Below, one piece after another: positions 1,613 to 58,155 of a DNA stretch of 58,951 bases (positions within the stretch are counted from its first letter, which is position 1; each line of letters begins with the position of its first letter). Both the position numbers and the translations under genes were made by a program. The notes under the pieces are model-generated. The model ran no database searches and was not told the DNA's origin. It was given only the letters and a program-made list of their open reading frames with translations. Source of the DNA: Parcubacteria group bacterium (GTDB lineage: Bacteria > Patescibacteriota > Patescibacteriia > UBA9934 > GWF2-40-263); assembly GCA_013204395.1 (NCBI GenBank), contig JABMNZ010000002.1, positions 1-58,951 on the forward strand, read 5' to 3'.

Positions 1613-1644
1613 ATGGATATAGTGTAACAAAAAACCACCGTCGA

Positions 1645-1721
1645 TGGTGGACCTGAAGGGATTCGAACCCTTGACCCCCTGCTTGCAAAGCAGGTGCTCT
1701 AACCAGCTGAGCTACAGGCCC
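1645..1721 (-). tRNA. tRNA-Ala(TGC), CCA encoded
   Basis: GGGCCTGTAGCTCAGCTGGTTAGAGCACCTGCTTTGCAAGCAGGGGGTCAAGGGTTCGAATCCCTTCAGGTCCACCA; full cloverleaf. Confidence 0.97.
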
Positions 1722-1753
1722 ATCATCGACGGTGGTATTTGAATTGCGGCGAA

Positions 1754-46083: not shown

Positions 46084-46137
46084 GGGAGAGGGGGGTGACA
46101 AAACACACGGCATCGAGCCGTGTGTTTTGTCGTCCTA

Positions 46138-46601
46138 GGAGCTATCTGTAAGCCGAATTTTGTCTGCTTGTGGCGACTGCCGCAAGGAGATGACAATTTA
46201 TCTAGCCCAGCTATTGCTAGCTGGATCGTGCGAGCTACCAAATTTGCTCTTACACCAGAAAGGGTTTACCACGCCTCCGTGTCGCCACGGGGCGAGACGT
46301 GTAGCCATCCTAACCGATCCCGCGAAGCGGGACCCCGAACCAACTGGCGTCGGGGCTGATCAGGGGACACCACATCACTTTTCACTTTTCACCTCACCCA
46401 AGGGTGAGGTTAGTATTGTCTCTGTGGCACTTTCCCTAGGCTTTGATCATGATGCTCGGGAGCAATATTCCAGCTCCTGAATTTCAGAACTTATACCTGG
46501 TTGTCGTTAACAACTTTCTTTTTCGATGCCCCTTACGAGACATCGGGTGTTCGGACTTTCCTCGAACTGGCTCTCACCAGCCCGTAGCCATCCGATAGTC
46601 C
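46138..46601 (-). ncRNA. rnpB: RNase P RNA
   Basis: GAGGAAAGTCC, GGGAAAGTGCCACAGA, GGTAAACCC, ACAAAATTCGGCTTA; P1 pairs the two ends. Confidence 0.93.
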
Positions 46602-46635
46602 TAAGACGGAGAGAAGATACCAAACAAGAGGGCAA

Positions 46636-53986: not shown

Positions 53987-55807
53987 TTAGACTTCTATGA
54001 TCACTGGGAGGATCATTGGGCGGCGTTCTGTTCGTTTGAACAAGAGTTTGCCTACCTTGTCTCTGATCTGGTCGCGGATGTATTTAGGATCTGCGGCAGA
54101 TTTTTTGTCGGTTTCCTCAGTAACTTTTTTGATCAAGTCACGTGTGTCGGAGATGAGTTTTTGATTATCCTGCATCATGACAAACCCTCGACTAACAATG
54201 TCTGGGCTGCCAAATAGTTTGCCTGTCTTTTTCTCAATCTTCACGATCACGACAACCATACCTTCTTCTGCCATATGGTTTCTGTCACGCAATACGACCT
54301 GTGATACGTCGCCCACTCCAAGTCCATCTACAAAGACGTACTCAGTCGGGACCTTCTCATTAGTCTGGCGTCCGCCATCTTTCCAGAATTCCATTACCTG
54401 TCCGTTGTCTGAGACAAACACATGTTCTTCGTCCCATCCCATGGAGTAAGCCACAGAAGCGTTTTCACGCAATAGGAAGTGGTTTCCTTCGATAGGTACG
54501 TAGTACTTTGGTTTGAATAGAGCCAACATTAGTTTGATGTCTTCCTTTTTGGCGTGGCCACCTGCGTGTACATCCATCATTTGATAGTGCACAACCTTTG
54601 CGCGCTTTCTATAAACGGTGTCCATGAGCCTCTGCACAGAAGCTTCGTTTCCAGGAATAACCGATGAAGAAAAGATCACTGTGTCGGTTTTCCTAATTTG
54701 GACGCTGCGGTGCTCTCCGTTAGCAATACGGTTTAAAGCAGCACGTTTTTCTCCCTGGGCTCCAGTACAGATAAGGATGACTTTGTCGTCAGGATAGTTA
54801 TCCATCTGTTCTGGTTTGATAAGGGTAGATAGTTTGCATTGGATGAAGCCAAGTTCTTTGGCGATCTCTACGTTTGTACGCATTGAGAAGCCGTCGATGG
54901 CAACTTTCTTTCCAAGTCTTTCTGAGATTTCAATGAGCTGTTTCACACGAGCTAGAAGGGAAGCAAAGGTTCCAACGATCACACGCCCCTCTGCTTTTTC
55001 TAGAATTCGTTCCAACTCTTCGCCAATGACCCTTTCAGATACTTGGTGCCCTTCACGGTTGGCGTTTGTTGAGTCTCCCATCAGACAGAGTACGCCCTCT
55101 TTTCCAAGAGCAGCGATTTGCTGGAAATCCGCGTGTTCTGTGCCAGAAGGGTGGAAGTCAAACTTCCAGTCACCTGTGTGACAGACACGACCAACTGGTG
55201 TGTCGATCACAATCCCCACTGAGTCAGGGATGTTGTGGTTGATGTGGAAGAAAGAAACGGTGAAGCTTCCAAGCTTTAGTACGTCGGTGGCTTTTGTCAC
55301 CTTTAGGTTCAGCTTCTTAGTGTGGAAGTCTTCTTGGCGACGCTTGATGATGGCCGCTGAAACAGGGAGCGCGTAAATTGGTGGGTTACCAATGTTTGGC
55401 ACCGTGTGGGGGATTGCCCCGATGTGGTCATAGTGACCATGAGTGATAATGACACCACGAATATTTTTTTCCTTACCCTTAAGGTATGTCATGTTGGGGA
55501 TAATGTAGTCTACTCCCGGCATGTTTTCTTCTGGAAACTCCAGGCCCATGTCAACGATGATGATGTCGTTCTTATATTCAATCAGCGTACAGTTGCGACC
55601 AACTTCTTCCAGGCCTCCAAGAACGATAATTCGTAACTTGTCGCCACTAGGAGATTTAATTGTTTGCACGCGTGGTTGGTGTTGTGGTCGGTTTGGTGTG
55701 TGTGGCTTCTTAGGGGCATCTTTAGAACGAAAAACTCGTCCTTTATGCTTGGACTGCACGCCACCTTTCTGGGTTTGTGGGCGCGGTGTAGGTTTTTTTG
55801 TAACCAT
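53987..55807 (-). CDS. rnj: Ribonuclease J
   Basis: LGGLEEVGRN, THGHYDHIG, HTGDWK, HAGGH. Confidence 0.96.
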   Translation of the reverse strand: MVTKKPTPRPQTQKGGVQSKHKGRVFRSKDAPKKPHTPNRPQHQPRVQTIKSPSGDKLRIIVLGGLEEVGRNCTLIEYKNDIIIVDMGLEFPEENMPGVDYIIPNMTYLKGKEKNIRGVIITHGHYDHIGAIPHTVPNIGNPPIYALPVSAAIIKRRQEDFHTKKLNLKVTKATDVLKLGSFTVSFFHINHNIPDSVGIVIDTPVGRVCHTGDWKFDFHPSGTEHADFQQIAALGKEGVLCLMGDSTNANREGHQVSERVIGEELERILEKAEGRVIVGTFASLLARVKQLIEISERLGKKVAIDGFSMRTNVEIAKELGFIQCKLSTLIKPEQMDNYPDDKVILICTGAQGEKRAALNRIANGEHRSVQIRKTDTVIFSSSVIPGNEASVQRLMDTVYRKRAKVVHYQMMDVHAGGHAKKEDIKLMLALFKPKYYVPIEGNHFLLRENASVAYSMGWDEEHVFVSDNGQVMEFWKDGGRQTNEKVPTEYVFVDGLGVGDVSQVVLRDRNHMAEEGMVVVIVKIEKKTGKLFGSPDIVSRGFVMMQDNQKLISDTRDLIKKVTEETDKKSAADPKYIRDQIRDKVGKLLFKRTERRPMILPVIIEV

Positions 55808-55984
55808 AAAAAATAATAGGTTGTTTGGTAGTTAATAATATATTCAATTGTGAAAGAACGTGTTTCAGCCGTGCAATCGCTTTGCTATAGCGCTGGCTGG
55901 AATCTCTCTCCATTAGACGGACGTGATCTTTTTGATCCGGCCGCATGTTGCAGCAGGACTGAAAAGGGCACGTACCTGTACACA

Positions 55985-56069
55985 TGGTGGGCGAGGGGGG
56001 ACTCGAACCCCCACGAGGTAACCTCACTACGCTCTGAACGTAACGCGTCTACCATTCCGCCACTCACCC
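55985..56069 (-). tRNA. tRNA-Leu(CAG), CCA encoded
   Basis: GGGTGAGTGGCGGAATGGTAGACGCGTTACGTTCAGAGCGTAG..GGTTCGAGTCCCCCCTCGCCCACCA; long variable arm. Confidence 0.95.
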
Positions 56070-56085
56070 AATATGTGGACAGGTG

Positions 56086-57930
56086 TTATCGTAACGCCTT
56101 CTTTGTTTTGATGTACCAATCACTTATATTTGTGAATCGGTCTGCTGGACTGGTGATAGTTTGAATTGGCTCTAATGTAATTTTTTTTGCCACAGCTGCG
56201 CTGTAACGGGAGCGGTATAGAAACACGGCTGGTAGGTCTTTGGCAAGAAGTTCTTGAAATTGTATATATTTTTCTGCACGAACCGCGTCATCTGTTTCTG
56301 TTCGAGCTTCTTCTAGAAGTGTGTCTACATCATCATTCTCGTAGTTTACCAGATTCAGGCCCAGACCATTGCCTTGGCTTGAATGCCAGAACGGATATGG
56401 ATCTGGATCAGCTTGTAGCATTACTGATGTAAGTAGCATCTCAAAGTTTTGTGGCTCGATAACTTCTGAGAGCATGAGTTCTGCTGGTATTAGCGCGAGC
56501 TCGATATTGATTCCGATGTTGAGCAAGTCCTCTTTTATGCGTTCTGCGACTACTTTCATCTCTGATGAGTCGACAGTTGTAAGGGTTAATGAAAGCGCTG
56601 CTGGATCAGAGGAAGTCTCTTCCCCTGAGTCTTCCTTAGAAAGTTCTTCTACAAGACTATTTTTCAATTCGCGCATTCCAGTCAAGATATTTGCACGATA
56701 ACCGGCTTCAGTTAGATTGGACTGTGAAAGATCTGGGTCTAAGACGACCGTGAACCCTTCGTTGTATCCCAGCATTCCATTTAAGATCGGGCCATGGATG
56801 ATCTCTGCGTACCCATCGTGGAGTTCATCGACAATAGCCTGCTTGTTGATAGCTTCGGATATGGCCGTGCGTACGACCAGATCACCTAGAGCTGGGCTGA
56901 GTGTCTGGTTCAAATATAAGTTGGTTTCACGTGGAAGCTGTGGTGTGAGTAGCTGGACGTTTTTATTCTCTTCTACTTGGACAAGATTATCGTAACTGAC
57001 AATACTTGCACCCTCTACATTTTTATTTCCAAGGGCTTCAGTCAGAGCATTCACGTCAGAGTAAAATTTAAAGGTAAGGGTTTCAATGAATGGGGGTTGA
57101 AAATAGTAATCTTCGTTGCGTGTCAGGCTGTAACTTCGTACGGATCCTTTCTTATCTTTTGTGAACTCGTGAAATTTATATGGCCCAGTCCCAATCGGCT
57201 GAAGGTTGAGGGCGGCCAGGGGAACATTTTGTGGGAGCACATCCGCCCAGAGACTTGCGGGTAGAATGCCGACCGTTAAATGCTGCAAGAAAGGAGCGAA
57301 TGGTTCGTCTAAGATGAACGAAACGGTTTTGTCATTTTCTTGCACAACCGTAACTCCTTGAAAGTTAACAGCTAAAGGACTTCGATAGCTAGACGTTTGG
57401 ATGGCATTGATGGTGAATAGGATGTCGCGAGCTCGAACCTCTTCCCCGTTGTGGAAGCGCGCCTCGTCGCGGATGGTAAACGTGTAAACCGTTTTGTCTT
57501 CGTTGATCAGAATGTCGCTTGCAAGATCCGGGATAAACGATCCCTCACCGTCCCAGCGGACAAGTCCTGAATAGACAAGTCTTGATATGTCTTGATCCAC
57601 GTCATTCGTGGATGCATACAGGGGGTTGATGAATTGAGGCTCTCCAACAAGTCCTTCGGTGTATTCTCCACCGACGGCTGGAATTTCAATACGGTGAGCG
57701 GCTAAATATCCAATCGTACTAACACAAAAAGATAGCACTAGTACGATCAAGGCACTCCCCACTATTCGTTTTTCAGAGATAGAGAGGATGCTTGGAAGTT
57801 GTTTCCACTGTCGCCAACTTGGAAGCATGTGGGTTTTAGAAACGGAAAGGACCTGGCGCATCGTCAGATCTTTGACGGAGTCAGTTTTCTTTCCTGTTAA
57901 CTGTCTGAAGAATGTACGTATGTCTGGCAC
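56086..57930 (-). CDS. Peptide ABC transporter substrate-binding protein (family 5)
   Basis: GGEYTEGLVG, LVYSGL, PDLA, PIGTGPY, YPFWHSSQ. Confidence 0.92.
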   Translation of the reverse strand: MPDIRTFFRQLTGKKTDSVKDLTMRQVLSVSKTHMLPSWRQWKQLPSILSISEKRIVGSALIVLVLSFCVSTIGYLAAHRIEIPAVGGEYTEGLVGEPQFINPLYASTNDVDQDISRLVYSGLVRWDGEGSFIPDLASDILINEDKTVYTFTIRDEARFHNGEEVRARDILFTINAIQTSSYRSPLAVNFQGVTVVQENDKTVSFILDEPFAPFLQHLTVGILPASLWADVLPQNVPLAALNLQPIGTGPYKFHEFTKDKKGSVRSYSLTRNEDYYFQPPFIETLTFKFYSDVNALTEALGNKNVEGASIVSYDNLVQVEENKNVQLLTPQLPRETNLYLNQTLSPALGDLVVRTAISEAINKQAIVDELHDGYAEIIHGPILNGMLGYNEGFTVVLDPDLSQSNLTEAGYRANILTGMRELKNSLVEELSKEDSGEETSSDPAALSLTLTTVDSSEMKVVAERIKEDLLNIGINIELALIPAELMLSEVIEPQNFEMLLTSVMLQADPDPYPFWHSSQGNGLGLNLVNYENDDVDTLLEEARTETDDAVRAEKYIQFQELLAKDLPAVFLYRSRYSAAVAKKITLEPIQTITSPADRFTNISDWYIKTKKALR

Positions 57931-57933
57931 AGA

Positions 57934-58155
57934 TTAGATCAGTGCATTTGCGAGCGCTACGGCAAAAAATAAAATGGCGAGAATGACTGTAAGCTGAAAC
58001 AGTTTTTTCTCTGCGCCGCGCTTTGTGCGGTAGACATTGCCACCACCCCCGAAGGCAGCACCAAGGCCTGTTCCACTTGCTTGTACCATTATAGCGGTTA
58101 CGAGCAGGATAGCGAGCACGATTTGAGCGATATTGAAAACAAGATCCAAATTCAT
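57934..58155 (-). CDS. secG: Preprotein translocase subunit SecG
   Basis: IMVQASGTGLGAAFGG..TKRGAEKKLFQLT. Confidence 0.93.
   Translation of the reverse strand: MNLDLVFNIAQIVLAILLVTAIMVQASGTGLGAAFGGGGNVYRTKRGAEKKLFQLTVILAILFFAVALANALI

Follow-up and report, generated by a model that had tools for sequence, protein, structure and literature searches.

The window, i.e. the whole stretch of 58,951 nucleotides that was analyzed, lies on contig C14 of a 1.10 Mb genome (G000; 47% G+C, 31 contigs, 97.7% complete), which represents a tiny, uncultivated lineage of Candidatus Uhrbacteria (Patescibacteria/CPR) whose close relatives have been deposited as metagenome-assembled genomes under that name. 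Both tRNAs that ARAGORN and Rfam identified in the window lie on the minus strand: tRNA-Ala(UGC) at 1645-1721 and tRNA-Leu(CAG) at 55985-56069, the latter being 85 nt long with an encoded CCA, an A73 discriminator and a match of 51 bits to Rfam RF00005. The window also encodes a bacterial class A RNase P RNA (46132-46603, minus strand; Rfam RF00010, 158 bits), the RNA of the enzyme that must cut at the junction between the tRNA and the helix described below. The match to this RNA spans 472 nt compared with the 367 positions of the class A model, and it therefore carries sizeable insertions.

The gene directly upstream of tRNA-Leu(CAG) encodes an SBP_bac_5 solute-binding protein (56086-57930, minus strand), the stop codon of which (56086-56088) lies 1 nt ahead of the inner helix of the tRNA precursor. 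No consensus promoter was found between the SBP_bac_5 gene and the tRNA, and the two are therefore likely to be co-transcribed, as judged from the sequence. Downstream lies the RNase J gene, rnj (53987-55807, minus strand), and this synteny of tRNA-Leu(CAG) and rnj recurs in most of the ~120 related loci with a tRNA call. Read along the minus strand (56086-58155 together with the tRNA at 55985-56069), the order of genes is secG, SBP_bac_5, tRNA-Leu(CAG) and rnj. In Escherichia coli, secG is co-transcribed with a tRNA-Leu gene (leuU), in a unit whose terminator blocks RNase P until it is removed (PMC2241853); the secG/tRNA-Leu likeness between the two organisms may reflect old synteny or coincidence. 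A T-run motif resembling GTG(A/C)TTTTT(G/C)C is found at variable distance 3' of tRNA-Leu(CAG) in many Uhrbacteria (L004, L008, L049, L056, L064, L071-L073, L079, L080, L086 and L118; about 55905-55965 in the window), including many orthologues that have no leader-trailer helix, and a block AAAAAGATCACGTYCGTCT before rnj is common to G000 and to the single other species of the genus that was compared (G001, JAERTI01, 42 tRNAs). The T-run motif may be the rnj promoter, or part of a regulatory 5' UTR or leader.

Leader-trailer pairing of the tRNA-Leu(CAG) precursor

The leader of tRNA-Leu(CAG), ACCTGTCCACATATT (56084-56070), pairs in register with A73-C74-C75-A76 plus TGTGTACAGGT (55988-55974) at 12 of 15 positions, the non-pairs falling opposite C74, opposite C75 and at -9/+5 (C.T). 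Re-scoring thus reproduced exactly what an earlier note on this DNA had described, namely a 12/15 pairing with mismatches opposite C74, C75 and one other position. Numbered from the tRNA, the inner leader strand, ACCUGUCCACAUAUU, runs from -1 to -15 (56070-56084, minus strand), and the inner trailer strand, ACCAUGUGUACAGGU, comprises A73, C74, C75, A76 and trailer positions +1 to +11 (55974-55988, minus strand); both strands are defined by the 12/15 anchored pairs, by the minimum free energy (MFE) fold and by a score of 12/15 in G001.

The MFE fold of the precursor includes this inner helix and extends it. Going outward, it consists of the pair -1:A73, a 2x2 internal loop at C74/C75 and 11 bp with one mismatch, and continues through a 5x1 loop that holds the upstream stop codon to a further nine pairs with two 1-nt bulges. 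The outer leader strand, AAGGCGUUACG (56090-56100, minus strand), corresponds to the codons (K A L R) with which the SBP_bac_5 gene ends, and the outer trailer strand (55962-55972, minus strand) is made up of CGUGCCCUU (55972-55964) followed by two more U, which complete a run of U4. The predicted duplex past the acceptor stem thus amounts to ~21 bp (12 inner plus 9 outer, interrupted by loops) and ends at this U4. The fold of the G001 precursor has the same three-part shape (z = -4.6), with outer strands AAAAAAGCGC/GUGUUUUUUU, and ends at U7. Relative to G000, the outer helix of G001 combines a synonymous change of a Lys codon (AAG to AAA) with a matching change in the trailer (CCC to UUU); the outer helix is based on the MFE folds and on this one comparison between G000 and G001. 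The inner helix of G001 also reaches 12/15, although with the mismatch moved: the C.U has become G-C, and the adjacent U-A has become G.A. In addition, C75 is unpaired in G000 and paired with G(-3) in G001.

The Leu-CAG helix was not called in a consensus terminator scan, and its strands are set apart by the entire 85-nt tRNA, as compared with the loops of about 3-8 nt by which such terminators are recognized. The U4 of G000 would make a weak terminator tail. An archaeal bulge-helix-bulge motif (two 3-nt bulges around a 4-bp helix) was considered and rejected for this fold, in which the interruptions are 2x2, 1x1 and 5x1, with no 3-4-3 arrangement.

Excess over chance and distribution among tRNA genes

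For a genome-wide comparison, leader positions -1 to -15 were scored against N73, C74, C75, A76 and +1 to +11, counting Watson-Crick and G.U pairs, in all 28 tRNAs of G000 with full flanks. Ala-UGC scored 14, Leu-UAG 13, Leu-CAG 12 and Arg-UCU 11 of 15, and the remaining 24 of the 28 tRNAs scored 0-6. Four scores of at least 11/15 were thus observed, against 0.024 expected per 28 genes (binomial). When each leader was instead paired with the trailers of the other tRNAs, the mean score was 4.6 and the maximum 11, reached in one of 756 combinations, and a shuffled Leu-CAG leader reaches 12 at p = 1e-4. The earlier note had proposed to look for such an enrichment across the genome, and had pointed out that both tRNAs of the window carry the helix, with flanks unrelated to each other, so that the pairing would have recurred independently. 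These points hold: the helix is absent from the other 24 scorable tRNAs of G000, and the Leu-CAG and Ala-UGC leaders have only 6 of 15 letters in common, and are therefore not copies of a repeated element. A shared repeat or mobile element as the source of the flanks was likewise ruled out for all four helices, which have no common sequence.

The same note had also suggested a precursor architecture of the whole lineage, and this is contradicted by the distribution. Helix-bearing tRNAs number 4 of the 28 with full flanks in G000, 4 of 42 in G001 and 2 of 39 in the related genome G005. Among Leu-CAG orthologues, duplex outliers make up 4 of 58 on genome contigs, while 5 of 43 on metagenome contigs score at least 11/15, and the leader-trailer duplex energies of the 58 orthologues show no overall shift relative to cross-paired controls (P = 0.46). 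Roughly a tenth of the tRNA genes carry the helix, as do some 8-10% of the Leu-CAG orthologues. Each of the Leu-CAG duplex outliers has an unrelated helix sequence, from which it follows that the helix arises repeatedly at this gene, persists for a while and gets replaced. A metagenome scan for further Leu-CAG congeners returned none above 81% RNase J identity, leaving G001 alone as informative for covariation of the Leu-CAG helix; the scan did yield additional, independent Leu-CAG helices.

Conservation and covariation of the helix

The helix-bearing genes of G001 are exactly those of G000 (Leu-CAG, Ala-UGC, Leu-UAG and Arg-UCU), and they score 12-13/15. Comparing the four helices between the two genomes, 37 pairs are unchanged, 4 have changed on one side via G.U and 10 are double compensatory changes; a further 8 pairs have been gained and 9 lost, so that mismatches shift position. 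The flanks of Arg-UCU are wholly different in the two genomes, yet those of G001 pair at 13/15. For Ala-UGC, the helix was followed through 10 genomes from at least 6 genera, over 18 pairs, of which 10 show changes on both sides. In this alignment, 83% of the cells are paired, single positions show as many as four types of pair, and the helix covaries more strongly than the stems of the tRNA itself. None of 500 column shuffles was as good, and registers slid against each other were 34-57% paired. The compensatory changes that the earlier note had proposed as a second check were therefore found, both between the two congeners and across genera. The Ala-UGC helix further contains 11 G.U against 5 A.C, an excess that, on the sequence, speaks for an RNA structure formed by the tRNA-sense strand. 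The leader-trailer helix is under selection.

Next to the tRNA, all ten Ala-UGC genes and most of the other helices have the pairs T(-4):A76 and G(-3):C75. C74 mostly has no partner, facing A(-2) in many cases (Ala-UGC, Leu-UAG), and is paired in at least three helices (L110, L247 and the Arg-UCU gene of G032). Nearly all helices have at least one non-pair among positions -1 to -3, the exceptions being L110 and L247, which are fully paired. The earlier view that the CC is left unpaired consequently has to be revised: C75 and A76 mostly pair, with G(-3) and T(-4), and it is C74 alone that is usually mismatched.

Apparent replacement of the ordinary terminator

For most tRNAs of these genomes, a canonical terminator (AAAAACACC...GGTGTTTTT) comes directly 3' of the CCA. 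Applying a simple hairpin-plus-T-run detector to the tRNAs of three related genomes, we found a local hairpin with T-run at 1 of 10 helix-bearing tRNAs versus 76 of 98 others (Fisher P = 4e-5, which is optimistic because orthologues are not independent). Considering this mutual exclusion, the leader-trailer helix seems to replace the usual post-CCA hairpin.

The Ala-UGC unit (1629-1736, minus strand) illustrates the arrangement, with its leader strand at 1722-1736, its trailer strand at 1634-1648 and a T6 at 1629-1634. Across genomes, the layout of the flanks is A-tract, variable stem, TGAN, tRNA, ACCA, variable stem, GGT and T5-T7, which resembles the usual AAAACACC...GGTGTTTTT terminator of G000 with the tRNA splitting it. 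The T5-T7 starts exactly where the helix ends in 8 of the 10 genomes, and the precursor folds with z = -6.4. A promoter-like site (TTGACA-17-TAATAT, 1782-1754) is positioned such that the leader strand falls inside the transcript, and a promoter-like site at Leu-UAG likewise places its leader strand within the transcript. In both Leu-UAG genes, the partner of the leader is ACCA with the one or two nt that follow it, and T6-T7 comes next. Since the T-run follows the helix immediately, the Ala-UGC and Leu-UAG tRNAs would lie inside an intrinsic terminator. At the Leu-CAG locus L062, a T7 begins right after the CCA; here, as in Leu-UAG, the acceptor stem together with a few leader pairs would be the terminator stem. 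Termination is not the general function of the helix, as the adjacent T-run is absent from the Leu-CAG helices of L110, L233, L235, L247 and L272, and from all three Arg-UCU helices. No consensus promoter was found just 5' of tRNA-Arg(UCU).

The Ala-UGC trailer could also form a small local hairpin (CCACC/GGTGG) followed by the T6. We regard this hairpin as secondary and not as the real Ala-UGC terminator: its loop is where the three compensatory changes that distinguish G000 from G001 are located, and it cannot form in G005 or G060.

Several further features of the tRNA 3' flanks were observed. A YkuD/FG-GAP gene on the minus strand starts at about 1612, ~33 nt past the end of tRNA-Ala and 17 nt past the T6. 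Neither a promoter nor a Shine-Dalgarno sequence is obvious in 1612-1645, and the gene may be expressed through read-through of the tRNA-Ala terminator or from a leaderless start. A 40-nt palindromic hairpin without T-run, gccgtcgctccatcagtattgttagttgatggagcgacgg, stands 3' of two different tRNAs in G000, i.e. after tRNA-Ala(GGC) (contig C5, 62595-62670) and after tRNA-Leu(UAA) (contig C27, 39482-39568), and hairpins of the type tccttcgctcc...ggagcggagg were seen 3' of tRNAs in other genera (L011, L014, L040, L041, L111); together, they are a dispersed hairpin family. Finally, the anticodon/3' half of tRNA-Ala is repeated in part (cggggttgcaagcaggggg...) just 3' of the full tRNA-Ala(UGC) at L209/L223 (G060), L037 (G008) and L215 (G046), and in G008 and G046 an extra outer 12-bp helix, CTACAACAATGA/TCATTGTTGTAG, surrounds the first tRNA-Ala.

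RNA-processing enzymes encoded in the genome

A search of G000 (97.7% complete) for Rho gave only weak, ATP-synthase-like matches, so that termination must be intrinsic, and RNase E/G and RNase Z were not detected in the same genome. The genome does encode an RNase III (Ribonucleas_3_3 plus dsrm, E = 3e-37), RNase Y, RNase J, a second beta-CASP nuclease, PNPase, a CCA-adding enzyme and RnpA; regex motif searches for RNase II/R (RNB), YbeY and Mini-III, a weak test, found none in G000. Overall, the RNA-decay toolkit resembles that of Bacillus, not that of E. coli. In E. coli, terminators following tRNAs are removed via RNase E (PMC2241853), a route that is closed to G000 as RNase E is absent. 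Going by the gene inventory, RNase III would be the obvious enzyme to act on a 20-bp duplex in this organism. As for transcripts, no RNA run matched the Leu locus, and the one run that shared words with the Ala locus contained only the tRNA-Ala cores of other organisms.

Comparison with known systems

Leader-trailer helices are textbook knowledge for rRNA, and are known for eukaryotic pre-tRNAs. With the rRNA leader-trailer helices of bacteria and archaea (PMC11404451, PMC10250234), the helices described here have in common that complementary flanks enclose a stable RNA, that they covary amid sequence drift and contain bulges, and that RNase III is encoded. They differ in length, rRNA helices having 17-40 bp or more and those of the Uhrbacteria tRNAs 11-21 bp. 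Compared with the duplex of about two helical turns (at least 17-20 bp) of an RNase III stalk, the helices other than that of Leu-CAG have 11-15 bp, or 18-22 bp when the coaxial acceptor stem is counted. Moreover, and unlike its rRNA counterpart, the Uhrbacteria helix encloses one tRNA outside any rRNA operon, stacks on the acceptor stem and takes in the CCA end; it is found in ~10% of tRNA genes, is gained and lost between genera and often has a U-tract next to it.

In eukaryotes, the CCA is added later, and the trailer pairs straight after position 73. In yeast (Lee et al. 1997) and human (Gogakos et al. 2017) pre-tRNAs, both as cited in PMC8457004, the acceptor stem is extended and contains a mismatch near -1. 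The Uhrbacteria precursors resemble these, as well as MALAT1-mascRNA, in a leader-trailer extension of more than 6 bp, in a mismatch, bulge or internal loop beside the RNase P site and in an A-rich leader facing a U-rich tail (in several cases: Leu-UAG, L062, and the outer parts of Ala-UGC and Leu-CAG). They differ in having sigma-70-type promoters, an RNA-based class A RNase P and an encoded CCA within the helix.

Among bacterial systems, ordinary intrinsic terminators likewise consist of an A-tract, a G+C-rich stem and a T-tract, and follow tRNAs; their loop has 3-8 nt, whereas here it would be a whole tRNA of 77-85 nt, with the 5' strand upstream of the tRNA and the acceptor stem within the stem. 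The E. coli secG-leuU unit (PMC2241853) is similar in that a terminator follows a tRNA-Leu. In E. coli, RNase P is slowed by pairing of the leader with RCCA and works best on leaders that end in A(-2)U(-1) (Zhu et al. 2022, PMC9433436). In both organisms, pairing of the 3' RCCA involves N(-1) and N(-2), and the A(-2)U(-1) favoured in E. coli is also the commonest leader end of the Uhrbacteria helices (TGAT); the E. coli pairing, however, amounts to 1-2 pairs that RNase P itself unwinds, whereas the Uhrbacteria helix has 11-21 pairs reaching far into the trailer. The literature that we searched contained no bacterial tRNA nested in a terminator and no long covarying leader-trailer helices around individual bacterial tRNAs, but only the analogues from rRNA, eukaryotes and E. 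coli.

Discussion

The best explanation of these observations, and one that on balance we believe, is that the closing helix acts as a terminator stem and/or as a double-strand processing site. Under this explanation, the Leu-CAG flanks of the primary transcript would pair into an RNA helix that is under selection and that prolongs the acceptor stem outward. The 3' sides of Uhrbacteria tRNAs would have two interchangeable solutions, the common one being a local hairpin and T-run after the CCA, and the rare one (~10% of genes) a trailer that pairs back onto the leader, such that the tRNA becomes the 'loop'. Where a U-tract directly follows the helix, as in Ala-UGC in at least 6 genera, in Leu-UAG and in some Leu-CAG loci, the helix would be the stem of an intrinsic terminator. 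The Leu-CAG helix of the window may act as a weak terminator or 3'-end hairpin ahead of rnj, and also as a double-stranded RNase III site that releases the tRNA from the mRNA, after which RNase P and PNPase would finish the tRNA ends. What the analysis shows is the helix with its excess over chance and its covariation, the mutual exclusion between helix and local terminators, and the set of enzymes encoded; termination, cleavage by RNase III and this order of processing are what we infer. A helix of 11-21 bp that seals the RNase P site is expected to hinder 5' maturation; the C74 mismatch (plus that of C75 in Leu-CAG), often opposite A(-2), may keep the site openable, and the favoured A(-2)U(-1) leader end may also do so once the helix has been shortened.

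An alternative that we consider rather unlikely is that of a pure processing stalk, a miniature of the rRNA type that serves excision by RNase III and perhaps also insulates the folding of the tRNA from the neighbouring mRNA, with the T-runs being incidental. Such a function would fit a genome that encodes RNase III with a dsRBD and is devoid of RNase E/G and RNase Z, a Leu-CAG gene that has no promoter of its own and a helix that takes in upstream coding sequence, as well as the many Leu-CAG and all Arg-UCU helices without T-run; rRNA leader-trailer helices, moreover, occur universally and remain important when RNase III is missing (PMC11404451). It would leave unexplained, however, why the helix ends exactly at a T-run in 8 of the 10 Ala-UGC genes and in the two Leu-UAG genes, which are units of a single gene driven by a promoter, and why helix-bearing genes in particular are missing the ordinary terminator. 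In addition, the inner helices, at 11-15 bp, fall short of the length of a classical RNase III substrate if the acceptor stem is left out of the count. The pairing could instead serve as a brake or timer of RNase P, in which the leader, by pairing with A73, C75 and A76, hides the 5' site until the trailer is gone, with the outcome that 3' maturation is enforced before 5' maturation or that these tRNAs are down-regulated. Two or more leader-RCCA pairs already lower the kcat/Km of E. coli RNase P (PMC9433436), terminator structures inhibit this enzyme at secG-leuU (PMC2241853), and the Ala-UGC set shows no variation at T(-4):A76 and G(-3):C75. We nevertheless hold this to be improbable, given that a brake needs 2-4 pairs and not 11-21 covarying ones, that these four isoacceptors have no obvious need of it, and that both the loss of the normal terminator and the adjoining T-runs would be left unexplained.

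It is very improbable that the helix has no RNA function at all and is a DNA palindrome (the relic of a split terminator, a recombination site or a product of chance) that persists in close relatives. The Ala-UGC flanks do look exactly like the usual terminators split by a tRNA, and the helix is sporadic across species, but chance is excluded by four helices observed against the 0.024 expected, and mere descent is contradicted by the 10 double compensatory changes and by the four pair types at single Ala-UGC positions. The predominance of G.U over A.C pairs on the sense strand, and the repeated origin of unrelated helices at the same gene, also speak against it.

Combining termination and processing, we arrive at a joint reading that is tentative and may well turn out to be wrong: Uhrbacteria, and perhaps Patescibacteria generally, would use an undescribed intrinsic terminator that nests a whole tRNA, RNase III would start 3' maturation, and the two forms of terminator would interconvert freely at the same gene. 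In such a nested terminator, the leader would pair with ACCA and a short trailer, thereby carrying the acceptor stem up to the U-tract, and RNase III would replace the absent RNase E and RNase Z in starting 3' maturation. Termination by Pol III is aided by a tRNA acceptor stem beside a short T-tract (bioRxiv 10.1101/2021.08.27.457903), and a nested tRNA terminator, should this tentative joint reading be right, would be the bacterial counterpart of that arrangement.

The scope of the phenomenon is modest: the helix has so far been seen in a single candidate phylum, at ~10% of the tRNA genes. If confirmed, terminator predictors would overlook a class of sites, because the loop of a nested terminator is far too large for them, and the helix would represent a natural case of a tRNA acceptor stem acting as the termination hairpin for bacterial RNA polymerase. 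The helix-bearing precursors would also provide a compact substrate with which to see how a class A RNase P meets a sealed CCA end. For the organisms themselves, confirmation would give a hint at how bacteria with minimal genomes that are devoid of Rho, RNase E/G and RNase Z produce the 3' ends of their tRNAs; in this lineage, a role of the leader-trailer helix in termination and processing is, from its sequence, plausible.
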